Source of the DNA: a virus
Lineage: Duplodnaviria > Caudoviricetes
DNA: 62,915 nt
Reading direction: 5' to 3' (one strand)
IMG/VR virus record: IMGVR_UViG_3300002920_000013
Span: 1-62,915 of that record
Position numbers and translations under genes: made by a program. Below, in pieces: positions 338 through 31,935 of the stretch (within the stretch, counting starts at the first letter, position 1; each line of letters starts with the position of its first letter). The notes beneath the pieces were generated by a model. The model was given only the letters and a program-made list of their open reading frames with translations, was not told the DNA's origin and did no database searches.

Positions 338-823
338 ATGTTAAAATATAATCAATGGCGAAAACTTTATGAGGAAGATGCAATGGACCAAGTGAATTCT
401 ATATTAGGAGGTGTTGGTGGTGATGATGCAGGCGCAGGCGGTGCTGGTGGTGGCGGTGAAGGAGGTGAAAAAAAAGATAAAAAAGAAGACCCAATAGAAA
501 AAATAAAAAAGGAACAGAAAAAGAAAGAGGAAAAAGAGGAGGAAAAACGTGAAGAATTTGTAGATGATAAAAAGGAAAAAATTTTTTCTATAATAGATAA
601 AAAATTAAAAGATTTAAAAGATGATGAAGAATTTAAGGAAATTATAGAAATTTTAAAAGATGGATTTGAAAAAGATGATAGCACATATTTTAGGGTTGCA
701 GTACAAAAAATACAAAGGTTTCAAATGAAAATGAATAGGAAACCCGATATAATTTCTAATTTAGCAAAAATAATTGATATATTAAATAAAGTAGACACAA
801 CTAATAAAAATGCAGAAGTTTAA
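338..823 (+). CDS. Hypothetical protein with Gly-rich linker and charged coiled coil; possible internal head protein
   Basis: N-terminus MLKYNQWRKLYEE, then GGVGGDDAGAGGAGGGGEGGE and a K/E-rich helix. TATAAATA upstream at 313-320. Confidence 0.6.
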   Translation: MLKYNQWRKLYEEDAMDQVNSILGGVGGDDAGAGGAGGGGEGGEKKDKKEDPIEKIKKEQKKKEEKEEEKREEFVDDKKEKIFSIIDKKLKDLKDDEEFKEIIEILKDGFEKDDSTYFRVAVQKIQRFQMKMNRKPDIISNLAKIIDILNKVDTTNKNAEV

Positions 824-844
824 ATACAAAATAAATTTTATTAA

Positions 845-1627
845 ATGAAATTTAAACAATATTTAGAATTGTGTGATAGAAATGAAAAATTATTAAAAAT
901 TTTAGAAAATAATATAAATGAATGGAGCAAAAATGATCCCATTCCTGAAGTTTCAAGGTCTAAAAATGGCGTATATTTAACAATGATTGGTCCTCCCGCA
1001 GCTGGGAAATCAACATTTATAAATAAATATGTTTCAGTTGTTAATTCTTGGAAAGTAATAGACCCTGATGAAATAAATTATATTTTATCAAGCAATAGAG
1101 CTGAGGACCGTGAATATGGGAAATGGAATAGTTCAAGTTCACGAATTTATTCTAAATATATCAAAAATATATTTAATAATGAAACAAAGCCAAATGTAAT
1201 TTTTGATAACACAGGAAATAATTTTGAAAGGAATATGGAATTTATAAATTATGCAAAAGCAATGGGATATACTACCGTGATGATATGTGTATTAAATACT
1301 ACAAATAAAATTTTACAAAACAATATAAAAAGGGCTGGTTCATATATTAAAAAAGATATTACAGGACAACTAAGGAAATCAAGAACCCTTATCCCAAATG
1401 ATTATCTGGAATCCATTCTTTCTAAAATAACAAATCTTATAAGTGAATATAAAAATCTTAAAAATCTTGATAAATTTTATATTGTTTTAAATACTGAAGC
1501 AGGATATAAATTTTTAAGATTTGATGAAGATAATAAACTGGAAATAAATGATAAAGGAATATGGATAAAAAATGAATCTTTAGATGATTTAGAGGAATTA
1601 AATAACTGGATTATGGGAACAAACTAA
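845..1627 (+). CDS. P-loop kinase, zeta-toxin/AAA_33-like
   Basis: Walker A GPPAAGKST, then IDPDEI, VIFDNTG and a lid arginine (NIKRA), the usual zeta-toxin-like order. Confidence 0.75.
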   Translation: MKFKQYLELCDRNEKLLKILENNINEWSKNDPIPEVSRSKNGVYLTMIGPPAAGKSTFINKYVSVVNSWKVIDPDEINYILSSNRAEDREYGKWNSSSSRIYSKYIKNIFNNETKPNVIFDNTGNNFERNMEFINYAKAMGYTTVMICVLNTTNKILQNNIKRAGSYIKKDITGQLRKSRTLIPNDYLESILSKITNLISEYKNLKNLDKFYIVLNTEAGYKFLRFDEDNKLEINDKGIWIKNESLDDLEELNNWIMGTN

Positions 1628-1628
1628 A

Positions 1629-2159
1629 CTAATTTTTTAATTTAATCGTTTTGTAAATCCTTTTAAAAGGATTGTCTAAATTAAGATATTCACAGGTCAT
1701 ATACATTTCAAAAAAATCCGTCCATATTTCATTATCAGGAATATTATGTTGTTTAGTTTTTGTTAAATAATGCCCAATCTCGTGAAATGCAATGCTTACA
1801 AATCTTTTTCTAATATCTGTTTCCCATTCATATGATATAGAATAATATTCACCCCACCTGTCCTTTTTCCTTTTTTTAACAAATCCTGTTGGCAAATCAA
1901 TATTTTTTCTTAAAATGGGTAATTTGTTTATTCTTTTTGTAGTAATTTCTTGTGCAAAATAATTTAATTTTATACAATAGGAACCCTCAGAATAAAACCA
2001 ATCAGGTGTATGACAAATACCCCAATAATTCATATCTAAATCATCTTTGTCAAGACTTGCTTTTATGTAAAATTTTAATGGAAATTTAAAATTATATCCC
2101 TTTCCTTTAAGGAAAAGAATGATTTGCCATAATTCATTCCAATGATTGTAATTTTGCAT
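1629..2159 (-). CDS. HEXXH zinc metallopeptidase-like protein
   Basis: AFHEIGHY followed by NEIWTD, an ImmA/IrrE-like spacing. Confidence 0.55.
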   Translation of the reverse strand: MQNYNHWNELWQIILFLKGKGYNFKFPLKFYIKASLDKDDLDMNYWGICHTPDWFYSEGSYCIKLNYFAQEITTKRINKLPILRKNIDLPTGFVKKRKKDRWGEYYSISYEWETDIRKRFVSIAFHEIGHYLTKTKQHNIPDNEIWTDFFEMYMTCEYLNLDNPFKRIYKTIKLKN

Positions 2160-2205
2160 AATAATAAAAATTTAATCTAAATATTTTTTTTATCCTAATC
2201 TGTTT

Positions 2206-2235
2206 AAAAAAAGAGACTTAAATTTTTAAGTCTCT
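2206..2235 (-). terminator. Intrinsic terminator
   Basis: AGAGACTTAAA/TTTAAGTCTCT inverted repeat at 2212-2235. The A-run at 2206-2212 gives a U-tract on the minus strand. Confidence 0.6.
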
Positions 2236-3317: not shown

Positions 3318-3335
3318 AAATTAAAAATTTTTAAA

Positions 3336-3358: not shown

Positions 3359-3384
3359 ATAAAATAGAATAAAAATATAGAAAA

Positions 3385-4227
3385 ATGTTTTTAAAATTTA
3401 AAGATTTTTTATTACTTGAAAATTCCGGGTCTTCCAGGTCAGTTCCTATAAATTCTTTAAAGGCAAAGGAATGGGTATTAAAAAATTCTAAGGAATGGTT
3501 ATCAATTTCAACACCTGAAAAATATCCAAGAATATTTAGAGGAATAGATAATGAAATGAAAAGGGTTGAATACTTATTCATAGACCCTAAAAAATCACAA
3601 AGATTAAACGAAGGAACAGATAGAATATATTTAGTTATTATGTCAGGTTCACCTAAATGGAAAAATTATGATCCTAGAGATAGGTCTTTAATATGTGCTA
3701 CCAGTACCTGGAATGCATCAAACTATGGGAGTATTTATGTAGTTATTCCAAGTGATGGCAAAAAACTATGTTATGCTTCTGAACCTGATATTTTTTATGC
3801 ATTTAAAGATTATTCAGAGGATATATCATTTTCTATAAATAGATTTATTGTATCATTATTTGAAATATTAGGAATTGATGAAAATGCAGAAGATTATTGT
3901 AATGATAAAATTAAAAATTATGAGGATATAAAAAATCTTAATCAATATTTACTACAAAATGGGTATAAGGAAAAATTTGTTCAAATAGAAAAAGTGATAT
4001 ATGAAAAATTTGATATAATTTCATCTGAAAAAAATAGAGTAATTTCTAATTTTAGAATTAGTTTTTTAGATGGATTAGAATATATTTTAAATCCAAAATA
4101 TTTTGGAAGAATAGAATTAAATGAACTTTTAGACGAATCCATAGATTATGAATTATGGACGGATAAAGAATGTTTAATGGTGAAATTTTACGAAATAGAA
4201 AATTTCATATCTTATTGCAAATCTTAA
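3385..4227 (+). CDS. Putative head-packaged protein with ADP-ribosyltransferase-like fold (paralogue 1)
   Basis: IFRG...ICATSTWNASNYGSIYVVIP...YELWTDKECL motifs are shared with 8087 and 8953. N-terminus MFLKFKDFLLLE. Confidence 0.5.
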   Translation: MFLKFKDFLLLENSGSSRSVPINSLKAKEWVLKNSKEWLSISTPEKYPRIFRGIDNEMKRVEYLFIDPKKSQRLNEGTDRIYLVIMSGSPKWKNYDPRDRSLICATSTWNASNYGSIYVVIPSDGKKLCYASEPDIFYAFKDYSEDISFSINRFIVSLFEILGIDENAEDYCNDKIKNYEDIKNLNQYLLQNGYKEKFVQIEKVIYEKFDIISSEKNRVISNFRISFLDGLEYILNPKYFGRIELNELLDESIDYELWTDKECLMVKFYEIENFISYCKS

Positions 4228-4285: not shown

Positions 4286-6103
4286 ATGAATAATGGTAAA
4301 GAATTATTGATTTTAGAAAAATCTTCGGTTTCTCTAAATGTTAATAAAAAAGGTTCAGATGAATATATTTTAGAAGGAATTTTTGCTGAATTTGGTGTTG
4401 AAAATAATAATAATAGAATATACGAAGAATCTGAATATTTGCCTCATTTTTCCTATCTGAAAAAGAAAGTTGAGTCCAAAAAATTGCTTGGTGAATTAGA
4501 CCACCCTGAACAATTTGATGTTTCACTCTCAAAAGTATCACACGTTGTTGAAGAATTAGAATATGATAAAAAAACAAGAACGGTACGAGGAAAAATTAGA
4601 TTGTTAGATACGCCAAGCGGAAAAATTGCAAAAACTCTTGTTGATAGTGGAATTCCTATTCATATTTCTTCAAGGGCAGCAGGAGAGGTTAAGGAAAACA
4701 AAAAAGTTGTAATAAAAAGGATATTCACTTATGATATAGTTGCAGAACCTGGTTTTGAAAGTGCAACACTTAAAAAAGTGAATGAATCCTATGGGTTTTC
4801 AAATAATGATGAATATATTTCTATTTATGAAATTGGTGATAAAAACAAACAAGAAGAAATAGAATATAAAAATAAAAAAAATATAATGGAAAAATACGTT
4901 TCTAATGAAAATTTGCAAAAATATAGCGAACACATTAAGAGAGAATTTGACTCTCTTAAAAGGTCGGTAGAAAAATCTTTGTCAAATTCATCTAATAATG
5001 ATAGAATTTTAAGAAAGATTGAAAAATTAGAAGAACGTTTAAATAGTTCTCTTAGATATTCTGATTATCTTGCAGAAAAATTATCAAAATCTATACAATA
5101 TTCTGAATATATTGCAGAAAATACAAATTCACCTAATATTGATTTGAATAAAAAAATAGAAAGACTTATTAAGTATTGCAATTACCTATCTGAAAAATTA
5201 GATAAATCTATTCTTTATAGTGAACATCTTGATGAACACAATTCTAAAAAAGTCAATAGAATTTCTAATGAAATAGATAAACTTATTAAATATGCTGAAT
5301 ATATTGCTGAAAATGCAAGTGAAAAGAAAGATGTTCAAAATTTAATAAAATATGCAGAATATATTGCTGAAAATGCAAGTGAAAAGAAAGATTTAGAAAA
5401 TTTAATTGAATATGCAGAATATATTGCTGAAAATGCAAGTGAAAAGAAAGATTTTAACAAATTAGTAGAATATACAGAAATGATGATGGAAAAATTACAA
5501 CCTGAATCATTTGTAAGTTTGAATAGTATTGTTGATAAATCTTTATATGAACAAGAAAAATATTATGAAAACCTGTCAGGAAAAATAGACAGGATATTAG
5601 AAAACGCAAATAAAGAAGGCGAAAAACAAATGGAAAATAAATATCCATTCCTAAGATTCTTAAGTGAATCAAAAATAAAAGAATTTAATTCTTTATCTGA
5701 AACTGAAAAAGAAAGAGTTTCAAAGGCTTTAACAAAAAATCCAAGATATAATGAACAAGATATCTTAAAAATTTGGGAAAGAGCCCTTAAGGAAGTTGAA
5801 ATAAATGAAAAATGGTTTGTAGAAATGCCAAAAGAATATGTAGAAATTTGGGAAAGTTTAGACCCGGCAAAGAAAGAACTTATTATAAAACAATCAAAAC
5901 TTTATAGTTTAGACACTCCATATAAAATTAAAAATTTCTGGGATACAAGAAATTTGATAAAAACATCAAAACTTAATGAAAATATGCAATCTGAAATTTC
6001 TAAAAATATGGAGAAACCTATTGATAACACAGTTTTTTCTTTGGGTTATTCTCAAGACTACATAAAAAATATACAAAACAAACTTAAAACATTTAAAAAA
6101 TAA
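4286..6103 (+). CDS. gp21: Prohead maturation protease (T4 gp21-like) fused to a scaffold/core domain
   Basis: LEGIFAE, NNNNRIY, LGELDHP, VSH, LDTPSGK, ISSRAAG and TYDIVAEPGF, followed by a long helical repeat region. Lies directly upstream of the capsid gene. Confidence 0.9.
   Translation: MNNGKELLILEKSSVSLNVNKKGSDEYILEGIFAEFGVENNNNRIYEESEYLPHFSYLKKKVESKKLLGELDHPEQFDVSLSKVSHVVEELEYDKKTRTVRGKIRLLDTPSGKIAKTLVDSGIPIHISSRAAGEVKENKKVVIKRIFTYDIVAEPGFESATLKKVNESYGFSNNDEYISIYEIGDKNKQEEIEYKNKKNIMEKYVSNENLQKYSEHIKREFDSLKRSVEKSLSNSSNNDRILRKIEKLEERLNSSLRYSDYLAEKLSKSIQYSEYIAENTNSPNIDLNKKIERLIKYCNYLSEKLDKSILYSEHLDEHNSKKVNRISNEIDKLIKYAEYIAENASEKKDVQNLIKYAEYIAENASEKKDLENLIEYAEYIAENASEKKDFNKLVEYTEMMMEKLQPESFVSLNSIVDKSLYEQEKYYENLSGKIDRILENANKEGEKQMENKYPFLRFLSESKIKEFNSLSETEKERVSKALTKNPRYNEQDILKIWERALKEVEINEKWFVEMPKEYVEIWESLDPAKKELIIKQSKLYSLDTPYKIKNFWDTRNLIKTSKLNENMQSEISKNMEKPIDNTVFSLGYSQDYIKNIQNKLKTFKK
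5281..5460 (+). repeat. Three 60-bp (20-aa) tandem coding repeats in the scaffold region
   Basis: GAATATATTGCTGAAAATGCAAGTGAAAAGAAAGAT recurs with an exact 60-nt period, encoding LI(K/E)YAEYIAENASEKKD. Confidence 0.95.
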
Positions 6104-6131: not shown

Positions 6132-8009
6132 ATGCAACTATTAAATGAAGCTGAAATTTTAAATACGTGGTCACCTATTATAGAACAACAAGGAGTTACA
6201 GAACCTTCAAAAATTTCTTGGATGAGCAAATATTGTCATTATCATAGTTTAAATGAAAATTTTTCTTATCCAGCAGCATCATTACTTAATACCCCAGGTA
6301 TGGGTAATGTTCAACCTCCTTCATTGGTATCAGGTGGTTCACCAAATTTTTATGCTCCTGGTTCTAAAGGTTCTGGTGATAAATTCCCAAGCTTATTGCC
6401 TCTTGCAATTCAAGTAGCCGCAAGAACTGTGGGATTTGATATAGTACCTGTAATTCCTATGCAAGGTCCTTCTGGTGTCCTTACATATCTTGATTATGCT
6501 TATACAGGTGGTCGTGATGCTCAAGCACCTGGTATTCCTAATCAAGATGGTTCTCTATTTAAAGATAAAGCACTAATCTTTAAATTGAATACAAAAGGTT
6601 TTTCACCAGATGCTCTTAATGAATGGAAACAAGAAAATGTTGGAAAAGTATATGCTTTTTCAAAAGATAATGCTTTCACTGGAACTTTACCTGCTCTTAT
6701 TGTAGCTTATATAGGAAGGTCAAGAATTGATGGATTCCCAATTTTCAGAACTCTTGCTGAAGATAATAATTTAAGTTCAGGTGCAGGTTCTGCAAACGTT
6801 AATGTGGCAATGAATCAAACACAAGCAATAAGTTTCTCAACTATTTTTGATGGTAATGGTACTCCTACAAATCCTATTTATATTTTTTCTGTTTCTGGAT
6901 ATAATAAATTAAATGCTACTTATTCTGGTTCTTCAGTAATATCTAATGCAACATTTACAGGACAATATTATGTTGAACTTGTTAAAGCAATTGAAGACCA
7001 TATTTTTGGTTATGATGGTAGCGGACCTGAAGATAATAGTCCTTTTTCAGGAGATGCTGTTGATGGACGTGTTCTATATGAACCTATGAGAAGAGGAGTT
7101 GGTGAAACAACTTATTACAGAAATATGGGTTTAACTGCCTTTACAAAATTTGTTGAAGTTGAAACATTCCAAGCCTCAATCACAATAACAACTGAACAAA
7201 TGCAAGACCTTAACAGGCAATATGGTATAGATGTTGTAGGATTGGTTGAAACACAATTAGTAAATCAAATTTCTTTTGACATTAACAAACATATTCTTTC
7301 AAAAGCATTTGCTCTTGGTTGGCAAAATCACTATAATTTCTTCCAAGTTGAAGGAGTTAATCTGAATCTTACTCTTAATGTTAATATGGCTTCTCCTTCA
7401 ACAACAGGTGGTGCTGAATTTGTAGGTGCTGATGGTTCTTTGCTAACAATACCTTTGCCTGCATACCAACAATATGGTGTTGGCGGTGCAACATTTGAAA
7501 ATCAAGGTACATTCCAACGTAGAATTCAATCCAAAGTTTTAGCCGCTGGAAACGTAATTACACAAAGAGGTAGAAGAGGTCCTGCAAACTTTGTAGTAAC
7601 AAATTTACAAATTGCAACTGCTTTGCAAGATTCAGCTCAATTTACAATGTATCCTTTGGCAAACACTGTGAATCAAACAAATGGTTCTCTATATCCTCTT
7701 GGAACACTTGCTGGAATGACAATTTATGTAGACCCTAATATGGCTTATCACGATACAAGAATTCTTGTTGGAAGAAAAGGTGCTGATGAAGAACCTGGAT
7801 TGAAATTTATGCCATACCTAATGGCGGAAACAATTCAAACAATCGCTGAAGGTACAATGTCACCTAAAATTGCAGTTAAAACAAGATATAAACTTGTTGA
7901 AGCAGGACATCACCCTGAAACACAATATTTTACACTATTGGTAAATCTTAAACAACTTACTCCTACTCAAATGTGGCATACAGTTCCTTCAACATTTACC
8001 GTGGCATAA
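6132..8009 (+). CDS. gp23: Major capsid protein (T4 gp23-like, HK97 fold)
   Basis: VPVIPMQGPSG, TTEQMQDL...GID, INKHIL, RGRRGPANFVV, GTLAGMTIYVDP, FMPY and PKIAVKTRY. Follows the protease and ends at a strong terminator. Confidence 0.93.
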   Translation: MQLLNEAEILNTWSPIIEQQGVTEPSKISWMSKYCHYHSLNENFSYPAASLLNTPGMGNVQPPSLVSGGSPNFYAPGSKGSGDKFPSLLPLAIQVAARTVGFDIVPVIPMQGPSGVLTYLDYAYTGGRDAQAPGIPNQDGSLFKDKALIFKLNTKGFSPDALNEWKQENVGKVYAFSKDNAFTGTLPALIVAYIGRSRIDGFPIFRTLAEDNNLSSGAGSANVNVAMNQTQAISFSTIFDGNGTPTNPIYIFSVSGYNKLNATYSGSSVISNATFTGQYYVELVKAIEDHIFGYDGSGPEDNSPFSGDAVDGRVLYEPMRRGVGETTYYRNMGLTAFTKFVEVETFQASITITTEQMQDLNRQYGIDVVGLVETQLVNQISFDINKHILSKAFALGWQNHYNFFQVEGVNLNLTLNVNMASPSTTGGAEFVGADGSLLTIPLPAYQQYGVGGATFENQGTFQRRIQSKVLAAGNVITQRGRRGPANFVVTNLQIATALQDSAQFTMYPLANTVNQTNGSLYPLGTLAGMTIYVDPNMAYHDTRILVGRKGADEEPGLKFMPYLMAETIQTIAEGTMSPKIAVKTRYKLVEAGHHPETQYFTLLVNLKQLTPTQMWHTVPSTFTVA

Positions 8010-8057: not shown

Positions 8058-8064
8058 ATTTTTT

Positions 8065-8086: not shown

Positions 8087-8944
8087 ATGAAATTCCTACA
8101 ATTTCTTAGATTGCAAGAATCACTTTTGTTAGAAGATTCACGAATACAAAATTTAAATATTAAAGATTTTAAAGTTTTTGCAGAATTTTGCAAAAAAAAT
8201 GATTTTAATGATTCACTAAAAAAAATGATTGAAAACGAAGTATTTTTTTTCAGAGGGCAAAATAGAACAAATAAAGATATTAAATTTTTTTTAATGGACC
8301 CATCAGGAATTGAAAGGAATTCATTAACTAAATTGCCATTTACTTATCTCTATAATTCAATGATAAACACAAAAAGTGATTGGAAAGATTATCCTAATAG
8401 GAATAAATCTGTTATATTTACAAATAATTTAGAATATGCAGAAACTTATGGTGAACCTTTTATAGTTGTGCCACAAAGGGGTAGAATAGGAATATGTCCA
8501 ACAGAAGATATGTTCACTTCTTTTAAAAATATAAAAATAGATGATATTTCAGACACAGCATATTATATTATGCCTAAAAATGAATTAGATAATAAATTAA
8601 ATAATAAAACAGATTGGGAAAGTTTAAAAAAAATATTGTTTGATATTTTTTTAGAAAAATTAAAATCAATATATGATAAAATGGCAAATAATTTATTTGT
8701 AAAAAATTTTTTGATTGAATTAGAAAATAGAGATTATGAAGGATTTTCAAAAGTTTTAGATAATTTATTCACACCAAGAAATTTAGGTTTTAATGTTATA
8801 AAATTCCCAGATGAAATAAATAAATTAAAATATAATTTTAATAATGAATTATGGACTGATGCTAAATGTTTGTTAATTGCTGTTGAAAAAGGCGAGGATT
8901 ATTTAGATTTTTTAAAAAATGAAATATACCCTATTTTAAAATAA
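8087..8944 (+). CDS. Putative head-packaged ART-like protein (paralogue 2)
   Basis: Start moved to ATG 8087 to match its tandem copy (MKFLQFLRLQESLLLE). Motifs FFRG, SVIFTN, YG and ELWTDAKCL. Confidence 0.55.
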   Translation: MKFLQFLRLQESLLLEDSRIQNLNIKDFKVFAEFCKKNDFNDSLKKMIENEVFFFRGQNRTNKDIKFFLMDPSGIERNSLTKLPFTYLYNSMINTKSDWKDYPNRNKSVIFTNNLEYAETYGEPFIVVPQRGRIGICPTEDMFTSFKNIKIDDISDTAYYIMPKNELDNKLNNKTDWESLKKILFDIFLEKLKSIYDKMANNLFVKNFLIELENRDYEGFSKVLDNLFTPRNLGFNVIKFPDEINKLKYNFNNELWTDAKCLLIAVEKGEDYLDFLKNEIYPILK

Positions 8945-9854: not shown

Positions 9855-11318
9855 ATGAAAGTAATGAAAAAATTATTTGAAGAAACTGCCGCAAGTAAAG
9901 GTGGTGAAATAGACAAAGTTTTAGAAGAGATAGGAAAAGCAATGAAAGATGCTTTGAAACTTTCTACATATAGGAGTGAAAAATTAAAAGCAATAACTAA
10001 TCTAAAAGAAGCTGAATATAAAGAAGAAATAGAACCCAAAAAAATAGAAGCTGCGGCAAAAGAAAAGATTGCAAAAATTATGCAGCAAAAAAAAGAAAAA
10101 ATAAGAAATGACTTAAAAGCAAATACAAAATTAACAGCCGACCAAAAAGCTGAAAGAAGAAAAATGTTATATGATAAATTAGATGAAGAAGAAGAAAAAA
10201 TGAAAGCTAAAATAAGTGATGTTGTTGATATACAAAAAGTTAAATTTGAAAATGAAAAAACTAAGGCACAAAATGAACTTAATAAAATAAATGGATTACA
10301 ATTGGAAACAGAAGCAGGAAAAATACAGAAACAAGATATAGATGATAATTTAAAAGAAGTAGCAAAATCAATGGATATAAATCTTAAAAAGAAGAAAGCA
10401 CAAGAATATGAAAAAATGGGATTGGGCGTTGAAAGAATATTAAAACAAGTACAAGCAGCAGAAAAAGAATTTGAAGAATTAGTTGGTATCAATAAAGAAA
10501 AAGCAAAAGATGCACAAGAAGCTTTGGAAGATTTACAAAAAGAACAAGATGAACAACTTAGAAAAGCAGGAGAAGAAGATCCTGAATTAAAGAAAGTTCT
10601 TGATAAACAAACTGAATTTCTTGCTAAGAAAAATGAAATAGAAGGTTTAATTCAAGATTTAGAAAATAAAGAATCTGAATTACAACAATTAAAAGATTTT
10701 AATTCAATAAATTATAATCAAAATAATATAGATTTTAATCTTGATTTAGAATTAGAAGTCAAAAAATTGTATAATCCAAGAATTTTTAAAATTATCACTG
10801 AAGAAGAATTTATTAGTATTTTTTCACAACAAAATGAAGTAAATGAACAAGGAAATCCAGGAGACCCAGGAAACCCAGGAGGCGGTGGCGGCGGTGGAGG
10901 CGGAGGCGGAGGCGGCGACCAACAACAAAAACAACAAAAAATAACACAATTAGAAAATGAAATATCAAATTTAAAACAAAAAATAAAAGATGCATTAAAA
11001 GAATTAAATGGTTTTAAACTTACAAAGACTGAAGCTGAAAAAATTACCAAAGGTGAAGATGGTGCAAATACTTTTATTGCCAATCAAGATTCTTTAATAA
11101 ATAAACTAAAATCCAGAATTAAAGAAGAATCCCAAAATCAAACACAAACACAAAATAGTTCAAAAAGTTATCAAGAATTTAAAAAAGAAATGATGTTAGA
11201 ATCACAAAAATATGAAAAAAATCTGAAAAAAATAGATATGATACTAAATGAAAATAAATCATATTCATATAGAGATGATTTTATGACTTTTGAAAAATTT
11301 TTAAAAATTAAAAAATAA
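9855..11318 (+). CDS. Long coiled-coil protein with poly-Gly linker; possible head core protein
   Basis: K/E/Q-rich helices and GNPGDPGNPG followed by a poly-Gly run. GATAAATA upstream at 9817-9824. Confidence 0.6.
   Translation: MKVMKKLFEETAASKGGEIDKVLEEIGKAMKDALKLSTYRSEKLKAITNLKEAEYKEEIEPKKIEAAAKEKIAKIMQQKKEKIRNDLKANTKLTADQKAERRKMLYDKLDEEEEKMKAKISDVVDIQKVKFENEKTKAQNELNKINGLQLETEAGKIQKQDIDDNLKEVAKSMDINLKKKKAQEYEKMGLGVERILKQVQAAEKEFEELVGINKEKAKDAQEALEDLQKEQDEQLRKAGEEDPELKKVLDKQTEFLAKKNEIEGLIQDLENKESELQQLKDFNSINYNQNNIDFNLDLELEVKKLYNPRIFKIITEEEFISIFSQQNEVNEQGNPGDPGNPGGGGGGGGGGGGGDQQQKQQKITQLENEISNLKQKIKDALKELNGFKLTKTEAEKITKGEDGANTFIANQDSLINKLKSRIKEESQNQTQTQNSSKSYQEFKKEMMLESQKYEKNLKKIDMILNENKSYSYRDDFMTFEKFLKIKK
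10851..10917 (+). repeat. GC-rich low-complexity coding repeat (GNP/GDP triplets and poly-Gly)
   Basis: GGAAATCCAGGAGACCCAGGAAACCCAGGA followed by a GGN codon run. Confidence 0.85.
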
Positions 11319-11743
11319 TGAATTTTAAAAATTTTTTAATTAAAGAAACACAATCTTTAAATGGAATATATGGAGGAGTTATTGTTAAAAAAATTCCATT
11401 AAAAGCTATTGAGAATTTTAAGATAGACCCTAATAATAATTTATATGCAAATAAAGATTTTAACAAAGGAGACATATTAGAAGAGGCACCATACATTATT
11501 TTAGAATTTTCACAAATAAATGATTTTAATATTTCAGATAGAATTTTCAAGATAAATGAAAATATGTATGCTTTACCTCTTGGTTGGGCTTCCTTTATTA
11601 AAACCTCAGAAAAGAAACAAAATGTTTCTTGGGAATGGGATTATGATAGAAAAAAAATAGTTTTTTTTGCAATGAAGAATATAAAATATGAAGAACAATT
11701 ATTTATTTCTTATTTAAGAAAATTTAAAAAAAATATAGAATAA
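11318..11743 (+). CDS. SET-domain protein, degenerate
   Basis: LYANKDFNKGDILEEAP, LPLGWASFI, NVSW and FFAMKNIKYEEQLFISY match small bacterial SET proteins. The NHS motif is replaced by KTS. Confidence 0.7.
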   Translation: MNFKNFLIKETQSLNGIYGGVIVKKIPLKAIENFKIDPNNNLYANKDFNKGDILEEAPYIILEFSQINDFNISDRIFKINENMYALPLGWASFIKTSEKKQNVSWEWDYDRKKIVFFAMKNIKYEEQLFISYLRKFKKNIE

Positions 11744-11744: not shown

Positions 11745-12134
11745 ATGTCATCAATGCTTAAAACTTCAATCAAATTAGAATCTTCAACACTATATCCTAA
11801 TAATGTGTTACAAACACAAGTTTATAATCTTCACATAAATGGTACATTTGCAGGATTTAATAAAATGATTGTAGAAACTACGCCTGTAAAATTAAATAAT
11901 TCAGATATAGACGGGGCAAGTCTTTCTGCTTATTTGTATATTTCAGCACCCTCTACAAATTTGCAAACTGTGTTCATTAAACAAGTAGGTGCTACTGAAT
12001 CTTTTGCAAGATTGGCACCTGGAGAATTTGCATTTCTTTCTTATGGGGGACAAACAACTACTCCTGATATTGTTGCATATACAGTAGGCGCAGGACACGC
12101 AGAAATTCATTATTTTATTGGTGAAAAAGACTAA
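11745..12134 (+). CDS. Hypothetical beta-rich virion protein
   Basis: Rich in small residues (ARLAPGEFAF); last gene before a terminator in a late unit. Confidence 0.5.
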   Translation: MSSMLKTSIKLESSTLYPNNVLQTQVYNLHINGTFAGFNKMIVETTPVKLNNSDIDGASLSAYLYISAPSTNLQTVFIKQVGATESFARLAPGEFAFLSYGGQTTTPDIVAYTVGAGHAEIHYFIGEKD

Positions 12135-12157
12135 AATAAAAAATTTAACAATTTTTT

Positions 12158-12191
12158 AACACCTAAAAATAAATATTTTAGGTGTTTTTTT
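12158..12191 (+). terminator. Intrinsic terminator
   Basis: AACACCTAAAA-ataaata-TTTTAGGTGTT followed by a T-run. Confidence 0.8.
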
Positions 12192-12214
12192 ATTTTATAA
12201 TAAAATCTATTTTT

Positions 12215-12781
12215 ATGAAAAATTTAATAATAATAGAAGGAATGGATAGGACCGGCAAGGATACTATACAGAAATATATTACAAATAAATTAGAAGCTGA
12301 AAATAATGAAATATTAAATTTTCATAGAACAGGACCAAAAAACAAGGGCCTCCTTGGTTATCTTGAACAAAAAAATATTTTTTTAAATGATTTTTTTAAT
12401 ATAAAAAATTACAAAGAAGAAAAAGAAAATACATATTTTATTTTTAATAGGTCCTATATTGGTGAATACGTTTATTCACCCCTATACAGAGGATTCCCTG
12501 CTGAATGGATATTAGACCTTGACAAATGTGTTTCAGAAGATACAGATTTTAATACATATCTTATTTTGTTATATGGTGAACCGGAATTCCTATTTAAAAA
12601 TGATGACAATAAATCCCTTTCTAAGGGGATAGAAACACATATTATAGAGGATAAATTATTTAAAGAAATTTTTAATAAATCCTTAATAAAGAATAAATTA
12701 TTATTAAAAGTATGTGATGATAAACAATATTTTGATTTTTTTATAGTTAAATTAGAAATTGATAAATTTTTAAATCTTTAA
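12215..12781 (+). CDS. Thymidylate-kinase-like dNMP kinase
   Basis: IIIEGMDRTGKDT P-loop and FNRSYIGEYVYSPLYRG. ATG 12215 preferred because the ORF-track GTG start lies inside the terminator. Confidence 0.8.
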   Translation: MKNLIIIEGMDRTGKDTIQKYITNKLEAENNEILNFHRTGPKNKGLLGYLEQKNIFLNDFFNIKNYKEEKENTYFIFNRSYIGEYVYSPLYRGFPAEWILDLDKCVSEDTDFNTYLILLYGEPEFLFKNDDNKSLSKGIETHIIEDKLFKEIFNKSLIKNKLLLKVCDDKQYFDFFIVKLEIDKFLNL

Positions 12782-12784
12782 AAA

Positions 12785-13642
12785 ATGGTTCCTAATCTGA
12801 ATGTACAAATTATTGATTTGTTAAAAGAAATCTATAATGAGGAATGCCAATCCTCACCAAGAGGACTAAAATGTTATGAAAAATTCAATCATACCTTTGT
12901 TGTGGATTCAACAAGACCAATCATAAGTTTCCCAAAAAGAAAATTCAATTGGAAATATTTTTTAGGTGAATTAACTTTTTATCTTAAAAAAGATTTAAAC
13001 ATAAATTGGATAAATAATTTTTCAACTTTTTGGCAAAAAATAGCAAACAATAATTTCATAAATTCAAATTATGGTTCCCGATTGTTTGGCAAAAATAGCA
13101 ATCAAATTTTTTGGATTGTTAATGAACTTAAAAAAGATCCCTTTTCAAGAAGAGCAATTGGTTTTATTTCAGGACCAGAAAATCAATATGAACTTAATAA
13201 AGACTTTATATGCACAAATTATATCCTTTTCTGGATAAGAAATAACAAACTATATCTAAAAGTTCAAATGAGGTCAAATGATATATTTTATGGCACAACT
13301 TATGATATACCTTTTTTTGCAATCCTTCATCAAGCAGTCAGGTTACTACTTTTAGACAAATATCCAAATCTTGCACTTGGTGAATATTATCATAGTGCAG
13401 ATAACATACATTTTTATGATAAACATAAAGAACTTGTAGAAAATATCTTGCAAGAAAATGATTATGAAGATAATTTTATTTTTCTAAAAATAAAAATGTT
13501 AGAAATGTATGAAAATTATATTGATACATCTTCACAATTTGAAATTTTAATATATGAAACACAAGAACTGCTAAATAATAAAGATATGATAAATATAGAA
13601 AATAGCAAAGAATTATTAAAAAAATATTTTTGGATAGAGTGA
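12785..13642 (+). CDS. Thymidylate-synthase-family protein, dCMP hydroxymethylase (T4 gp42)-like
   Basis: GELTFY, WQKIA, INSNYG, SRRAI, DFICTN, MRSNDIFYGTTYD and NIHFY. Asp, not Asn, occupies the base-specificity position. Confidence 0.85.
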   Translation: MVPNLNVQIIDLLKEIYNEECQSSPRGLKCYEKFNHTFVVDSTRPIISFPKRKFNWKYFLGELTFYLKKDLNINWINNFSTFWQKIANNNFINSNYGSRLFGKNSNQIFWIVNELKKDPFSRRAIGFISGPENQYELNKDFICTNYILFWIRNNKLYLKVQMRSNDIFYGTTYDIPFFAILHQAVRLLLLDKYPNLALGEYYHSADNIHFYDKHKELVENILQENDYEDNFIFLKIKMLEMYENYIDTSSQFEILIYETQELLNNKDMINIENSKELLKKYFWIE

Positions 13643-13866
13643 AAACACTTAAAGATTGGGAAAAATATAAAATTTTAGCAACTCTTAGAAAATATAAAGG
13701 CAAACACAAAATATTATTTTTAGAAGATCCTGAAGACCCTTGGTTTGTAATATGTGCACAAATTTCATTAAAAAATAATAAACTTGAATATTTTACTTTT
13801 TTGATTAAAAAAGATTTAAATATTTGGATTGAATATAAAAAAACAGAAAAATACACACTGCAATGA
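13630..13866 (+). CDS. Hypothetical protein
   Basis: Fills the gap with overlaps to both neighbours; start codon uncertain. Confidence 0.5.
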   Translation: MDRVKTLKDWEKYKILATLRKYKGKHKILFLEDPEDPWFVICAQISLKNNKLEYFTFLIKKDLNIWIEYKKTEKYTLQ

Positions 13867-14315
13867 TACCAATAGTAGAAATGAATGAAATTTTAGATAA
13901 AAGGGATAAAATAATGGAACGTTTAGCAATAGGAGATTATTCATCAGAGGAAGAGTGCAAACAACTTTTAGAAACAGCAGATAGGTATTTTATACTTATA
14001 GAAGATGAAATAAAACAAAATTTTAACAATTATCCTGTTGATTTTATTATTCAAACATTTCACAGACTTGGTGATACATTTATGCCAATATATGATCCTG
14101 AAAAAGGTTATGCTTATTATACATTTTTAAATCAAATAGACACATTGGAAAAAAATCAAGTATTAGATGAAAAATCAGGAATTAAAATTCCTTTTGATGC
14201 CTCTGCATATGCATTTGTAGTAAATGAAGATGATTGGTCACCAACAATACGAGAAGCAGTTTGGAAATGGATTAAATATGTAGAAGATTCCAGTATAAAC
14301 AATTTAATTTCTTAA
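13863..14315 (+). CDS. Hypothetical protein
   Basis: ATGA-coupled ORF in operon orientation. Confidence 0.6.
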   Translation: MIPIVEMNEILDKRDKIMERLAIGDYSSEEECKQLLETADRYFILIEDEIKQNFNNYPVDFIIQTFHRLGDTFMPIYDPEKGYAYYTFLNQIDTLEKNQVLDEKSGIKIPFDASAYAFVVNEDDWSPTIREAVWKWIKYVEDSSINNLIS

Positions 14316-14320
14316 AATAA

Positions 14321-14827
14321 ATGAATTTTTTTAAAAAAATTTTAAATATTATAGGTTGGGTTCCAATCATTTGGGAAGATAGAAATGATGATTTTTCAAG
14401 TATTGATATTATTCTGTATCATAAATTGAAAAATATGTATAACTATTCTAAAAATAATGATGTAAATTATCCAAAATTAAGATGGGCATTAAATCTTTTT
14501 CATAATTTAATAAATAATTATTACTATAAAGAACGAAACAAATATTTTAAATATAAAACTAAAATTTCTTTTGGGAAAAATAATAAGCATCTTCTTTTAA
14601 ATAGTTTTAAACATATAATTAAAAAAGATAAATTAGAAGAATACGTAAAAAATAATAAATCCTATTGGAATAAAAATTTAAAGGAATATCACAATAAAAA
14701 TTTTAAAGATTTTGAATGTGAGGATAAAATTTATATTGCAATTAAAATAAACACTCTTAAAGAGAATAGGGCACGTGAACTTGCATATAGAATATTAAAA
14801 GAATACCATATTTATTGGTGGGACTAA
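14321..14827 (+). CDS. Hypothetical phage protein
   Basis: WVPIIWEDRNDD near the N-terminus and a C-terminal WWD. Confidence 0.6.
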   Translation: MNFFKKILNIIGWVPIIWEDRNDDFSSIDIILYHKLKNMYNYSKNNDVNYPKLRWALNLFHNLINNYYYKERNKYFKYKTKISFGKNNKHLLLNSFKHIIKKDKLEEYVKNNKSYWNKNLKEYHNKNFKDFECEDKIYIAIKINTLKENRARELAYRILKEYHIYWWD

Positions 14828-14841
14828 AAAATATTTATTTT

Positions 14842-26580: not shown

Positions 26581-27915
26581 ATGAAATATTTTAATATAAT
26601 ACCTCTTGTTGGAGGAATGACTATTGCAAACATTAAAGCCACAAATACATTGCCTACTGCTATTTTTTCTTTCACAAATTTTGAAAGAAATGAAAAATAT
26701 TTAAAAAAATATTTTTCAGATAAAAATTATGATATTCCTTATTATATTATTCCAGCAAAGAAAGAAGAATACGATAATTTTTTTAAAGAATTTTTGGATA
26801 AGAATCCTAAATTTTTTGAAAATACAGATTTTGTTTCAACCGTGTGTCCGTGTTCAGGATTATCTATGTTAAATGTTTCATCAGGTGATTATTCACGTGG
26901 TAGTAATGCACCACAAAATGAATGGATTTACAAAACAATAGATATTGCTCTTAATTATATTAGACCCAAAGTTCTTTGGGGTGAAAATGCTCCCCTGTTA
27001 TTTAACATAAAAAAAGAAAATATAGGTTTAAAATTAAATGAATTAGCGGAAAAATATGGTTATAGATTTTTAATAATTAAAACAAATACAGAATTACACG
27101 GAATACCACAAAGAAGAGTTAGAACATTTTATTTTTTCTTTAAGGATTATATTCCTTTGTATAATATTCCTCATTCAACTAACAAACAAAATTTAAGAGA
27201 ATTTTTATCAACTATTTCAAAAGATGCAACATTTAATGATATTTTATGTAATGGAATGAAACTTAATGAATATGAAAATTTTTTTAAAAATTTACCTTTC
27301 TGGAAATATTTTATAGAAGAAAATGGTGATAAATATTCTCATATATTAGAAAGAATTAAAGATAGAAAAAAAATATATTCTCCTTTAAATGAAGATATTA
27401 TAATAGATGAAGATACTATTTTAAATTATAGGGAATATGTTCTAAATAATATTGAAAAACAAGAAAATCCTGACATTAAAATACAATGGAAAAGAGTTTT
27501 AAAATTTTTAGATAGACTTATAAAAAAATCAAATGCAGGTACAGGAAATTTTAAAATAGTAGGTATTTTTACTATACATCACCCTATGTATTCAAAAGAT
27601 TTAATTTATCCTGCAGTTATAACTAAAAATTTACTTCTTACACATATTTATCCAGAAAACAGATTATTAACAATAAGAGAAGGAGCTAAACTTATGGGAC
27701 TGCCTGATGATTATGATTTTGGTGATAAATTTAAAGTAGAAATTTTACACGCAATTTCACAAAATGTTCCTGTAAATACAGCACAAGATATGACAAAATT
27801 TGTTATTGATTATTGTGAAAATAAATTAGAGAGATTAAATTCACAATTTGTTCTTTATGATAATATTTTTAATAAATTAGAAGAAGTGAAAAAAAGATGT
27901 CGTGTTCTTTTTTAA
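26581..27915 (+). CDS. C5-cytosine DNA methyltransferase
   Basis: Motif IV PCSGLS, VI GENAP, VIII PQRRVR, IX RLLTIREGAKLMGLPDDY and X QNVPV. Motif I is atypical (IPLVGGM). Confidence 0.88.
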   Translation: MKYFNIIPLVGGMTIANIKATNTLPTAIFSFTNFERNEKYLKKYFSDKNYDIPYYIIPAKKEEYDNFFKEFLDKNPKFFENTDFVSTVCPCSGLSMLNVSSGDYSRGSNAPQNEWIYKTIDIALNYIRPKVLWGENAPLLFNIKKENIGLKLNELAEKYGYRFLIIKTNTELHGIPQRRVRTFYFFFKDYIPLYNIPHSTNKQNLREFLSTISKDATFNDILCNGMKLNEYENFFKNLPFWKYFIEENGDKYSHILERIKDRKKIYSPLNEDIIIDEDTILNYREYVLNNIEKQENPDIKIQWKRVLKFLDRLIKKSNAGTGNFKIVGIFTIHHPMYSKDLIYPAVITKNLLLTHIYPENRLLTIREGAKLMGLPDDYDFGDKFKVEILHAISQNVPVNTAQDMTKFVIDYCENKLERLNSQFVLYDNIFNKLEEVKKRCRVLF

Positions 27916-30201: not shown

Positions 30202-30234
30202 AATTTATTGTTTCACATTAAAACTTTTTAATAA

Positions 30235-31407
30235 ATGAAATCAAGCAGATTAAACAAAAAATTATCAAATCCAAAAAATGGTTTAAGGGTTTATTCACAA
30301 GAACCTTATGCAGAAGAACTTTTAAAAATTTATGAATCATTTAATTTAGAAACTTCAACACAAAGTTCTTTTACAAATTCTAACAAAGATTTTGAGATTG
30401 GGAAAAGATATTATTTAAAAGATATTATCCCAATAAATAATTATTCAATTTTATGTAGAGTTGGAAATGGCGATGTAATAATAGACATTAAAAATGAAAA
30501 AAAATTTTTAAAATCTTTTGAAAAAACAGATGAAGAATTTATAGAAAATCTAAAAAATAATAATGATTTTAAAGAATTCATTATTAAAAATTGCCCAATT
30601 AACATAATATCAATAAAACCAAGATTAAAAGCAACATTTGTTGAAGATGCTACAATCTGTATAAAAGAAGAAATGTTAAAAGAGATTAAAAATCCAACAA
30701 GAGTTTGGAAAGCTAAAATAATAAAGAAAAATGCAGGTGGCTATATGGTAAAAGTTGGAAATATAGAAGGATTTCTCCCAGGTTCACTTGCATCTGCAAA
30801 TATTGTAAAAGATTTTGATGAATTAGTAGGTAAAGAGGTAAATGTAATGATAGATGATTATTTGCATAGTTCTAAAATGTTTGTTTTTAGTGTTAAAAAA
30901 TATTTGTCTTATATTTTGCCACAAAAAATAAAAGAACTTGATTTAACTAAAAAATATACAGGATATGTAACAGGAACATCTAAATTTGGTATTTTTATTG
31001 AATTTGATGAAATTTTTACAGGACTTATGCACATAAGTAAAATGAGTCCAGCAATGATAGATAAATTTAACAATAAAGAATATAAGGCAGGAGATAGTAT
31101 TGAATTTTATATTTTAGATAATACAGAAAAACTAATTTTAACAGATTTAGATGTAAATGAATTAAGAAAAGAGCACGAAGAAAAAATTGAAGAATTAAAA
31201 GAATTTAAATATGTCATAGGAAAAGTTGTTTCTTCAAAAGAACACGGTGTCCTTTTAAAATTAGGTGAAAGTAGAATGGGAGATATTTTAGGATTTGCAC
31301 CTATGACAAAAAATAATAATCAAAAATATGAAATAGGAAAAAATTTAAAATGTAAAATTGTAAATGTTAATAACAAATATAAAATAACACTGAAAATTGA
31401 AAAATAA
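30235..31407 (+). CDS. Ribosomal protein bS1-like protein with tandem S1 domains
   Basis: KNAGGYMVKVGNIEGFLPGS; GYVTGTSKFGIFIEFDEIFTGLMHIS; GKVVSSKEHGVLLKL. Confidence 0.85.
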   Translation: MKSSRLNKKLSNPKNGLRVYSQEPYAEELLKIYESFNLETSTQSSFTNSNKDFEIGKRYYLKDIIPINNYSILCRVGNGDVIIDIKNEKKFLKSFEKTDEEFIENLKNNNDFKEFIIKNCPINIISIKPRLKATFVEDATICIKEEMLKEIKNPTRVWKAKIIKKNAGGYMVKVGNIEGFLPGSLASANIVKDFDELVGKEVNVMIDDYLHSSKMFVFSVKKYLSYILPQKIKELDLTKKYTGYVTGTSKFGIFIEFDEIFTGLMHISKMSPAMIDKFNNKEYKAGDSIEFYILDNTEKLILTDLDVNELRKEHEEKIEELKEFKYVIGKVVSSKEHGVLLKLGESRMGDILGFAPMTKNNNQKYEIGKNLKCKIVNVNNKYKITLKIEK

Positions 31408-31419
31408 AATAAAAAAAAA

Positions 31420-31935
31420 ATGAAAAGTTTTCAAAATTTTATTATTGAAAATCTTAATGAAAATTTACAAGATTACACATTTTATCACGTATCTCCAGGA
31501 CCATTTCCAAAACTAATGCTTTATAGATATAGCAGACAAGAAGGTGGTGTTGTACTTTTTTTCTCTTTAAATATAGAAGATTCATATGCTTGGTATAAAA
31601 ATTCTTTAAATAAAGGTAATAGTAATTCTCAAATAATTAAATGTGTTTTGTCAAAATCTTGTAAATTAACCCATATAGATGATGTAAATGAATTAACACC
31701 AAGTGAAAAAAAATCTTGGGTTGAAATGGCAGTTAGTAATCCAAATTATAAAGAATTTTCAAAACACCCAGCTACTAAAAAATTAAAGAAAATGGGTATA
31801 AATGGTGTTCAAATTAAAGATTATGACCCAAGAGATTTTTCAAAAGACCTTGATTCATTTGTTTTATTTAATTTTTCACCTGAAGAACACATAGAATATT
31901 GGGAATCAATTAAAATAGACCCTAAAAAACTTTAA
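31420..31935 (+). CDS. ART-like small protein with capsid-targeting-like N-terminus
   Basis: FYHVS, LFFS...SYAWY and GINGVQIKD...FVLFN; N-terminus MKSFQNFIIENLNE. Confidence 0.45.
   Translation: MKSFQNFIIENLNENLQDYTFYHVSPGPFPKLMLYRYSRQEGGVVLFFSLNIEDSYAWYKNSLNKGNSNSQIIKCVLSKSCKLTHIDDVNELTPSEKKSWVEMAVSNPNYKEFSKHPATKKLKKMGINGVQIKDYDPRDFSKDLDSFVLFNFSPEEHIEYWESIKIDPKKL

Follow-up and report, generated by a model that had tools for sequence, protein, structure and literature searches.

In bacteriophage T4, the internal proteins IPI, IPII, IPIII and Alt carry a capsid-targeting sequence (CTS), which is cut by the prohead protease gp21. This tag is described as the only feature shared by the internal proteins, which are loaded into the prohead core and are injected as anti-restriction proteins (PMC3012670; PMC12373910), and the prohead protease is reported to remove propeptides of 10–20 residues (PMC5694885). 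In the T4 record, ipII and ipIII begin with MKTYQEFIAE, and ipI begins with MKTFKEF...ITE. The present analysis deals with comparable N-terminal leaders in the IMG/VR virus record IMGVR_UViG_3300002920_000013 (Caudoviricetes). The 62,915-nt stretch examined, referred to below as the window, is the entire assembly for this genome, and its open reading frames (ORFs) are named after the position of their start. An earlier, sequence-only reading of this DNA had listed nine similar N-termini, all of which are present with the right positions and strands, and had proposed that they mark a toolkit packaged for host takeover or anti-defence. The leaders are probably protease-cut, head-targeting propeptides of the T4 type on packaged cargo. 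The idea of such a leader on unrelated proteins gains from a T4-family protease and a gp23-like capsid protein in the window, from leaders on about 20 families in relatives, from a shared heptad in the protease and from homologs in virions of Agrobacterium phage Atu_ph07. ORFs 338 and 9855 and the ATP-grasp ligase 3317(-) carry no convincing tag.

The window and T4 have the same protease and capsid families and a short N-terminal tag ending in [LI]-x-Glu, and in both, this tag is the only common feature of otherwise unrelated proteins. The leader MKSFQNFIIE of ORF 31420 resembles MKTYQEFIAE, and the starts MNFKNF and MKFKQY resemble the MKTFKEF of ipI. There are also differences. The putative cargo of the window is mostly enzyme-sized with recognisable folds (SET, P-loop kinase and a 280-aa family), whereas T4 packages inhibitors that are small and basic. 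In the window, the distance to the Glu differs between leaders by one or two residues. T4 gp21 has 212 aa and no repeat extension, whereas the window protease has both 605 aa and such an extension, and the host lineage is also different.

In the giant phages SPN3US and phiKZ, many head proteins are likewise cut by a T4-related prohead protease (gp245 and gp175, respectively), and these proteases cut at a different motif. Their propeptides have been proposed to target proteins to the prohead and are mostly longer than 100 residues (PMC5694885), whereas the tags in the window are T4-like, with 10–16 residues. The Rak2-like jumbo phage Atu_ph07 encodes, in gp53–gp63, a tandem array of the same family as ORFs 3385, 8087 and 8953, with an 8-residue leader and a presence in virions, and the kinase domain of its gp53 is homologous to ORF 845; the identity to the window proteins, however, is 27–29%. 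In the virion data of that phage, gp53–gp63 are given as hypothetical virion proteins, with no mention there of a leader or of processing (PMC6102473).

Two further comparisons concern the cargo. The very small SET protein vSET of PBCV-1 is encoded and packaged by the virus and acts on the host early in infection (PMC7019647). ORF 11318 is also a very small viral SET-domain protein, but vSET belongs to a eukaryotic virus, targets histone H3 and has no protease-cut tag. Polyvalent proteins and ART-PolyVal domains of phages were reportedly described by Iyer et al. in 2017. The idea of phage-delivered enzymatic effectors, including ADP-ribosyltransferases (ARTs), is common to both cases, with weak, sub-threshold matches for ORFs 8087 and 31420 (below); polyvalent proteins are multidomain polyproteins, whereas the window proteins are single-domain with a putative cleavable tag. 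In the open-access literature searched, no work was found in which “capsid targeting” occurs together with Lak, mega- or huge phages, some searches listing papers on T4, P1 and SPN3US only. Nor did any paper turn up that describes a phage SET protein encoded next to a capsid gene or present in virions.

One heptad in leaders, protease and capsid protein

The prohead protease of the window (Table 1) consists of a T4 gp21-type catalytic domain, approximately residues 10–245, and a long C-terminal extension. Its second-best match is Peptidase_S80, and its N-terminal LLILE, which is conserved in homologs, parallels the MNEPQLLIE of T4 gp21. The extension contains seven copies of the heptad aromatic-x-x-aromatic-[LIV]-x-E, the same heptad as in the leaders, and this recurrence is what is new with respect to the sequence-only reading. 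Five to ten copies, mostly 14 residues apart, are found in 46 of 47 distinct protease homologs, and the homolog from locus L001 has two; the background frequency is 2.0 per 1000 aa. When [LI]xE is counted against shuffled composition, the protease (26 vs 13.9, z 3.7) and the capsid protein (9 vs 3.6, z 3.1) rank as the top two of the 55 genes. ORFs 9855 and 338 are not marked by this density as heavily cut core proteins (z -0.6 each).

The N-terminus of the gp23-like capsid protein aligns with the T4 gp23 propeptide from gp23 residue 3 onward. Of 29 distinct homolog N-termini, 27 retain the motif Y-H-x-L-N-E around one of its candidate sites, and the remaining two have M-N-E and L-Y-E. L-N-E is the same ending as that of the leaders in relatives. 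T4 gp23 itself has FGSFLTE at residues 59–65. Since the mature chains in the PDB comprise 456 of its 521 residues, the cut falls after E65. The same heptad ends the T4 tag, forms the gp23 cut site and repeats in the protease. The leader heptad is therefore probably the extended T4-type maturation motif, with which the protease of this lineage is studded.

In the proposed mechanism, the leader would be built around aromatic-x-x-aromatic-[L/I/V]-x-Glu, a core in which the Glu sometimes comes one or two residues later, and it would mark ORFs 31420, 3385, 8087, 8953 and the SET protein 11318 and, less surely, the kinase 845. The heptad would serve as both the recognition and the cleavage motif of the gp21-family prohead protease. 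Before closure of the shell, tagged proteins would co-assemble with the prohead core, made up of the protease extension and of the scaffold-like ORF 9855. The protease would then cut off the tag after the Glu, and the mature proteins would be retained in the DNA-filled head until infection, when they would exit together with the DNA. All of these steps (targeting, cleavage, retention and ejection), like any role in host takeover or anti-defence, are inferred. If they are right, the proteins that an uncultivable huge phage brings into the cell with its DNA could be listed from sequence, including effectors of the first minutes, which escape homology searches because they share nothing but the tag.

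The repeats in the protease also suggest, tentatively, how a tag might work. With one copy of the heptad of the protease extension at its N-terminus, each cargo protein could mimic the scaffold, become part of the core and be cleaved there at this very motif, an idea for which we would claim a minority share of the probability. It presupposes a helical C-terminal domain of the protease, built of 14-residue Y-x-x-Y-[LIV]-x-E repeats across the whole huge-phage lineage. The link between tag and protease repeat would give a concrete, testable answer to the old question of the binding partner of the T4-type targeting sequence. Under scaffold mimicry, one motif would read out the whole packaged and ejected proteome of uncultured huge phages, with at least 20 proteins in a 238-kb relative. 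Capsid-delivered enzymes would then newly include a SET methyltransferase, a zeta-type kinase, an Acb1-like 2H phosphodiesterase, LicD and the phrog_12810 family, the members of which may be ARTs.

Leaders in the window, in relatives and in virions

The leader of ORF 31420 scores 28 in an ungapped BLOSUM62 comparison with T4 MKTYQEFIAE, and the runner-up among the 583 ATG-opened N-termini of the window scores 15. Among N-termini in relatives, a score of 28 against the T4 tag is reached by just 1 of 5690 decoys. The protein behind this leader is an orphan. A word-based search yielded near-identical copies only, no Pfam family was found at E <= 10, and the single-sequence AlphaFold2 (AF2) model is unusable, with a predicted local distance difference test score (pLDDT) of 45. 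An Atlas lead points to clusters in which 23% of the members bear ART-PolyVal. Directly upstream, at 30235–31407 (+), lies a 390-aa ORF, the product of which has a match to the S1 RNA-binding domain (54 bits) and another, faint one that is phospholipase-A2-like.

Enrichment of the motif at N-termini was examined with a regular expression composed after the data had been seen. The pattern [FY].[NQDE][FY][LI], starting at residue 6 or earlier, matches 6 of the 55 genes, with 0.37 expected from the protein-internal rate and 5 matches in 528 decoy ATG frames. When the pattern is lengthened to end in [LIVA]-x-E, it matches 5 of 55 genes and none of the 528 same-composition decoys. Three of the matches (3385, 8087 and 8953) are paralogs, which leaves four independent families, so that the claim of unrelated proteins stands for these families and not for each protein. 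The claim of clustering around the head genes is borne out for 3385, 8087, 8953, 9855 and 11318, and ORF 31420 lies 23 kb away, among baseplate genes.

Three tests were independent of the window motif: the BLOSUM62 comparison with the T4 tag, a hidden Markov model (HMM) of the leaders in relatives and a position-specific scoring matrix (PSSM) from members of the paralog family outside the window. With the HMM, ORF 31420 ranks first of 489 N-termini (8.2 bits). The ATP-grasp ORF 3317(-) ranks third (7.1 bits); it matches the first half of the relatives' leader and lacks the [LI]-x-E end. With the PSSM, the SET protein 11318 scores 7.5 (3 of 434 decoys are as high), 9855 scores 5.4 (6 decoys), 845 scores 4.9 (10 decoys) and 31420 scores 4.4 (12 decoys). 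The evidence is uneven overall. ORF 31420 is a strong case, family inheritance accounts for the paralog trio, and the SET protein and the kinase are suggestive. ORFs 338, 9855 and 3317(-) are not above chance, and for the first two, the weaker cases of the sequence-only reading, the proposed tags are indistinguishable from it.

A scan of IMG/VR with the capsid protein gave 80 capsid-centred loci. In the closest of them (L006 as well as L002 and L003, the latter two with 62% capsid identity), the head genes are surrounded by many small ORFs that start with M-K-x-[IL]-[KQP]-[TN]-F-[EQD]-x-F-[IL]-N-E-[SA]. In about 20 more distant relatives, the gene directly after the capsid gene encodes an Ala/Lys/Glu-rich, scaffold-like protein that begins with M-x-K-L-K-T-Y-x-E-F-[VI]-N-E. 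The pattern [FYW]xx[FYWL][ILVF]xE, which was composed after L002 had been seen, occurs within the first 18 residues of 32 of 500 distinct gene N-termini and 60 of 5690 decoys (odds ratio 6.4). By BLAST of the mature parts, 63 leader-bearing proteins from the window and its relatives fall into 22 families, among which Pfam recognises SET, LicD, DUF285 and 2H-phosphoesterase/Acb1-like proteins. In the 238-kb L002 record (84% complete), a degenerate DNA pattern gives 54 matches on the coding strand and 18 on the other (controls 34 vs 25), and [FY]xx[FY][IL]NE has 20 coding-strand matches and none on the opposite strand. All ten inspected matches of the latter (six from L002 and four from L092) are N-terminal. 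The remaining ten in the record lie in several clusters far from the head genes, and clustering at capsid genes is therefore not a rule.

One leader-bearing ORF in L002 (1779–2381, +) encodes a 2H phosphoesterase, with 2_5_RNA_ligase2 at 30.3 bits (cut-off 27) and the model of Acb1, directed against the cyclic-oligonucleotide-based antiphage signalling system (CBASS), at 26.6 (cut-off 27). An internal Met gives the leader start MQQKKFIKLFEEF. The product is possibly a packaged anti-CBASS enzyme.

ORFs 3385, 8087 and 8953 all match phrog_12810. The ATG at 8087 is the likely start of an ORF listed from a TTG at 8063, because that TTG lies within the GATAAATA motif described below. With a profile built from the three paralogs and one homolog, the family counts 3134 representatives at E <= 0.001, and at E <= 1e-10 it still counts 2238. 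Most family members begin with M-[RK]-[LF]-x-x-[FY]-[LI]-x-E-G-R-S, and the PSSM consensus of the start is MRFKQFLTE followed by GRS. Among 149 listed representatives from outside the window, 91 have, within residues 1–16, the pattern hydrophobic-xx-hydrophobic-[LIVFM]-x(0-1)-x-E. In 83 of the 149, the first [LIVFM]xE ends at residue 9–11, and it is followed by G in 32 cases, by S in 21 and by A in 12 (65 together). The AF2 model of ORF 8087, built from 77 sequences, has a pLDDT of 84.6 and a predicted template-modelling score of 0.84, and the sole stretch below 50 is residues 1–16, up to LLLE16. A word-based search with ORF 8087 gave near-identical copies only, and Atlas named no family (best “named” cluster 0.83).

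Homologs of these paralogs have been detected in virions by mass spectrometry. Atu_ph07 has a tandem array of the family, in which 11 of the 15 annotated coding sequences tested match the family HMM (E 1.7e-64 to 9.2e-10), and all eleven start with M-[RK]-[WL]-x-[QD]-L-x-E. They were assigned here to gp53–gp63 by gene order and by exact calculated mass against Table S5 of PMC6102473. In that table, all are listed as virion proteins, with 3–31 unique peptides (Attai et al. 2018, PMC6102473), and the 29–31-kDa members peak in gel bands 7–8, at about full size (PMC6102473). One of them, gp53 (L082 10383–12719, +; 778 aa; leader MKWNDLNE), has a phrog_12810 domain (residues 22–237) fused to a Zeta_toxin kinase domain (residues 261–387, 54.4 bits), and it is abundant, with 31 unique peptides and 45% coverage in the virion data (PMC6102473). 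Phage RsoM2USA also encodes three family members with similar leaders. If the reading is true, phrog_12810 would move from “hypothetical” to head-packaged and protease-trimmed.

Several observations weigh against the interpretation as T4-type propeptides on packaged cargo. The regular expressions were composed after the data had been seen. The HMM of the relatives' leaders fails to lift 8087 (2.3 bits), 8953, 3385, 11318 and 845 above decoys, and 11318 and 845 fall outside the top 40. Leaders other than that of 31420 fit only if the Glu is allowed to stand one or two positions later. In the PSSM, the unflagged ORFs 23390, 42634 and 11745 and the start of the collagen-like fibre ORF score at least as high as the SET protein, and leader-like starts are thus not rare in a genome with 25% G+C. 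Within the 80 capsid-centred loci, 3385, 8087, 8953, 845, 9855 and 31420 have no BLAST homolog, and no relative of the phrog_12810 family can be detected by sequence among the proteins of T4, Alt, ModA and ModB included, or in the phage LR756500. The Atu_ph07 virions were purified with polyethylene glycol, and the list of 131 proteins also has a ribonucleotide reductase, a RecA-like protein and a single-stranded DNA-binding protein (PMC6102473); some entries may be carry-over. The list also gives no peptide-level view of N-terminal trimming (PMC6102473). Lastly, the family is absent from the mass-spectrometry set of RsoM2USA, which spans only 10 gel bands and is uninformative for it.

Most of this could be explained by composition and paralogy. 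Starts rich in K, F, N, I, L and E are common at 25% GC, and the real signal might be confined to 31420 and to the inherited N-terminus of the paralogs, with a merely superficial likeness in the SET protein and the kinase. Such an account fits the HMM, which separates 31420 alone, the unflagged ORFs and the fibre ORF ranked by the PSSM as high as the SET protein, the kinase tag that 10 of 434 decoys equal and the recent paralogy behind half of the six strong cases. It is nevertheless considered improbable: the contrast of 5/55 with 0/528 was obtained with decoys of the same composition, the SET start M-[ND]-F-K-x-F is invariant in five orthologs at 32–35% GC while the next 15 residues vary, and a kinase homolog is fused behind a tag in the Atu_ph07 virion protein.

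Two of the high-scoring starts deserve separate mention. The start of the fibre ORF 59659, MLNIKKILESDS, is a warning on the specificity of the PSSM. ORF 11745–12134 (+; 129 aa) has 44% identity to an L002/L003 ortholog, a conserved N-terminal S-x-I-K-L-E-S and a PSSM score of 6.4, and its product may be another processed head protein.

Candidate cargo and scaffold-like proteins

Table 1. Head-related features, candidate leader-bearing ORFs and the promoter-like motif of the window
Feature	Position	Strand	Characteristics
Acidic, Gly-run protein, 161 aa	338..823	+	Leader HMM 4.5 bits, within decoy range; TATAAATA 25 nt upstream
P-loop kinase, 260 aa	845..1627	+	AAA_33 34.6 bits (cut-off 27); starts MKFKQYLELCDRNE; first [LI]-x-E after the aromatic pair at residues 19–21
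ATP-grasp ligase, 317 aa	2364..3317	-	Starts MAYIKFYESF; R2K_3 30.6 bits (cut-off 26.3); Dala_Dala_lig_C 24.3 (cut-off 24)
Paralog, 280 aa	3385..4227	+	26% identity to 8087; family HMM 3.3e-59; leader MFLKFKDFLLLE (nt 3385–3420); immediately upstream of the protease
Prohead protease, 605 aa	4286..6103	+	Peptidase_S77 (PF03420) 1.7e-11, 44.5 bits (cut-off 27); phrog_207 “head maturation protease” 9.2e-36
Protease-extension repeats	5057..5668	+	YSDYLAE, YSEYIAE, YCNYLSE, YAEYIAE x3 (residues 258–382); FLRFLSE (455–461)
gp23-like major capsid protein, 625 aa	6132..8009	+	Pfam Gp23 3.6e-35; candidate sites I16-I17-E18 and L40-N41-E42 (nt 6249–6257)
phrog_12810 member, 285 aa	8087..8944	+	phrog_12810 4.4e-23; leader residues 1–16 MKFLQFLRLQESLLLE (nt 8087–8134); candidate cuts after E11 and E16
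Paralog, 284 aa	8953..9807	+	74% identity to 8087; leader MKFPQFLRLQESLLLE
K/E-rich protein, 487 aa	9855..11318	+	13-Gly run; starts MKVMKKLFEE, ends FMTFEKFLKIKK; downstream of the capsid gene
SET-domain protein, 141 aa	11318..11743	+	Leader MNFKNFLIKE (nt 11318–11347); PF00856 34 bits (cut-off 22.4), residues 42–132
Orphan, 171 aa	31420..31935	+	Leader MKSFQNFIIE, residues 1–10 (nt 31420–31449), then NLNE; best T4-CTS-like leader in the window
GATAAATA promoter-like motif	3351 (to 3358), 4247, 8065, 9817, 17135, 18548, 19404, 24105, 46012, 59623	+	8-mer enrichment
GATAAATA promoter-like motif	3336	-	8-mer enrichment

The three paralogs had been read as ART-like, and what remains of this is a weak hint in the fold. 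Neither 8087 nor 3385 matches a Pfam family at E <= 10, the paralog profile gives no ART match and nothing relevant among PDB sequences, and Foldseek with the 8087 model finds nothing in the PDB at E <= 0.001. In a VIA-align comparison with 48,161 chains, the best hit is 2aua, of unknown function (Z 5.5; root-mean-square deviation (rmsd) 3.5, 113 residues aligned), and Arr has Z 5.4 (rmsd 3.5, 89 aligned). Judged by entry title, 19 of the 50 listed rows are ART-fold chains with Z 3.0–5.4, which is below the stated noise level of 7–8. They include DarT, PARPs, cholix/PE-like proteins and OspC3/CopC, a consistent theme at sub-noise scores, and a second VIA look gave Z <= 3.4. Foldseek against BFVD yields weak matches to “PolyVal ADP-ribosyltransferase” (E 0.03–0.6). 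R56 (in Y/F-R-G), S108 and E254 are invariant in the 77 sequences and could form an R-S-E triad. The chances that the phrog_12810 family is an ART family are about even.

The SET fold of ORF 11318 holds at the level of Pfam, with a score above the cut-off. The five distinct orthologs (the window, L002, L006, L088 and L089) have, besides the invariant start, a Glu and then T/S/P within 7–13 residues, and all are encoded after the capsid and scaffold-like genes. A word-based search returned near-identical copies only. The cofactor and catalytic motif of SET proteins is N-H-x-x-x-P-N. The orthologs have NHRNQPN at these columns, and the window copy, which has KTSEKKQN, is without N-H..P-N, in which it also differs from vSET; the C-terminal I-S-Y is kept. 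If the reading is true, a bacterial-virus counterpart of the packaged chlorovirus vSET would become testable.

ORF 845 had been called a zeta-like kinase with a tag. It is a P-loop kinase of the AAA_33 family and aligns with the Zeta_toxin domain of Atu_ph07 gp53 (E 2e-6), where its GPPAAGKST matches the gp53 P-loop. Its own Zeta_toxin score is 20.3 bits, below the cut-off of 22.3, so “zeta-like” is not established at the family level, and its tag is marginal. By analogy, the tagged virion protein gp53 can be taken as the best argument for a zeta-type kinase as head cargo. The ATP-grasp ligase is genuine by HMM, and its membership of the tagged set is not supported, with no [LI]-x-E end.

ORF 9855, for which no Pfam family was found above the cut-off, is probably a coiled coil and looks like a scaffold rather than an effector. 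It is read in this way because of its composition, its position and its C-terminal F-M-x-F-E-x-[FY], which is common to the L002 protein at the same position (12055–13887). Aromatic-rich, heptad-related ends recur at the C-termini of scaffold-like proteins, namely FMTFEKFLKIKK in 9855–11318, FMKFEEYMAFKK in L002 12055–13887, DRYIAEIK in L006 976–2763 and FEYVAES in L012 12005–13339. ORF 338 is possibly a small prohead-core protein.

In T4, the core components gp22, gp67 and gp68 are degraded and expelled at maturation. The leaders might accordingly be real, protease-cut propeptides on core, scaffold or minor head proteins, which are degraded and expelled or kept, with no arsenal directed at the host. 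ORFs 9855 and 338 resemble scaffold or core proteins, the best leader of about 20 distant relatives (M.KLKTY.EF[VI]NE) is borne by the scaffold-like gene after the capsid gene, the heptads of the protease extension may merely reflect self-degradation, and the window SET copy is without its catalytic motif. We regard such a purely structural role as fairly unlikely, in view of the tagged proteins with enzyme folds and no obvious assembly role (SET, P-loop kinase, LicD and 2H phosphoesterase/Acb1-like), the persistence of Atu_ph07 family members in mature virions at about full gel size and the T4 precedent, in which tagged internal proteins are ejected.

Promoter-like motif and genomic setting

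The late-promoter motif of T4 is TATAAATA. Among 8-mers within 70 nt upstream of genes in the window, GATAAATA shows the strongest enrichment, preceding 9 genes where 0.61 would be expected. The + strand has 19 copies of it and the - strand three, and eleven of these copies lie just upstream of starts, including those of the protease, of the collagen-like fibre ORF 59659 and of 3385, 8087, 9855 and 3317(-). Because it resembles TATAAATA and because of the genes that follow it, GATAAATA can be inferred to mark late genes. What the sequence-only reading called late-promoter motifs holds as an enriched 8-mer, which among the N-termini listed there precedes 3385, 8087, 9855 and 3317(-); within 100 nt of 845, 8953, 11318 and 31420, GATAAATA is absent, and 338 has TATAAATA instead.

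Several tagged genes sit behind the same GATAAATA, and the leader peptide is predicted to be helical and amphipathic, as might be expected if the shared N-terminus served a purpose outside the capsid, as a translation-initiation or mRNA feature of late genes or as a membrane or secretion signal. It is nevertheless the peptide that is conserved, its aromatic residues being regularly spaced and its end being a Glu in contigs that range from 25 to 35% GC, the same heptad is present inside the protease and at capsid maturation sites, and the leader is too short and too charged for a signal peptide, which together make a purpose of this kind very unlikely.

The G+C content is 20–30% across the window and 25% overall, and the + strand carries nearly all long ORFs. 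In tblastn, the capsid protein has 43% identity to the uncultured phage LR756500.1 (462 kb), 36–37% to Prevotella Lak phages (~540 kb) and 31% to Tenacibaculum phage PTm1. From these identities and the family matches of the protease and capsid protein, the window is read as part of the genome of a huge phage, the head module of which is of the T4 type. No tRNA and no Rfam family was found in the window.

The list of 55 genes comes from a simple caller, which took the first ATG and ORFs of at least 50 aa and ignored those running off the end. A different genetic code was considered for the gene gaps at 34.4–35.6 kb and 59.6–62.9 kb and rejected, as these are artefacts of ATG-only, closed-ORF calling. 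The caller had overlooked a TTG-start ORF of 562 aa at 34367–36055 (+), which occupies the apparent gap after the gp25-like gene, and the open-ended ORF from 59659.

Downstream of the head genes lie genes for nucleotide metabolism, a C5-cytosine methylase, baseplate proteins (gp5-OB-like and gp25-like) and giant ORFs. The regions 12215–16928 and 26581–27915 (+) contain a thymidylate-kinase-like gene, a thymidylate synthase, a family-2 glycosyltransferase (phrog “beta-1,4-glycosyltransferase”) and a C5-cytosine DNA methylase, which together hint at modified DNA. The giant ORFs at 36268–42576, 49045–52485 and 52489–59613 (+), with 2102, 1146 and 2374 aa, lie in the tail/baseplate part of the window. 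They are followed by the ORF at 59659–62915 (+), which runs off the window end after more than 1085 aa, has GATAAATA at 59623 and contains a collagen-like Gly-x-y run near its N-terminus (GPMGPRGKQGIPGIPGKPGPIGPTGPTGPTG); it probably encodes a tail fibre.

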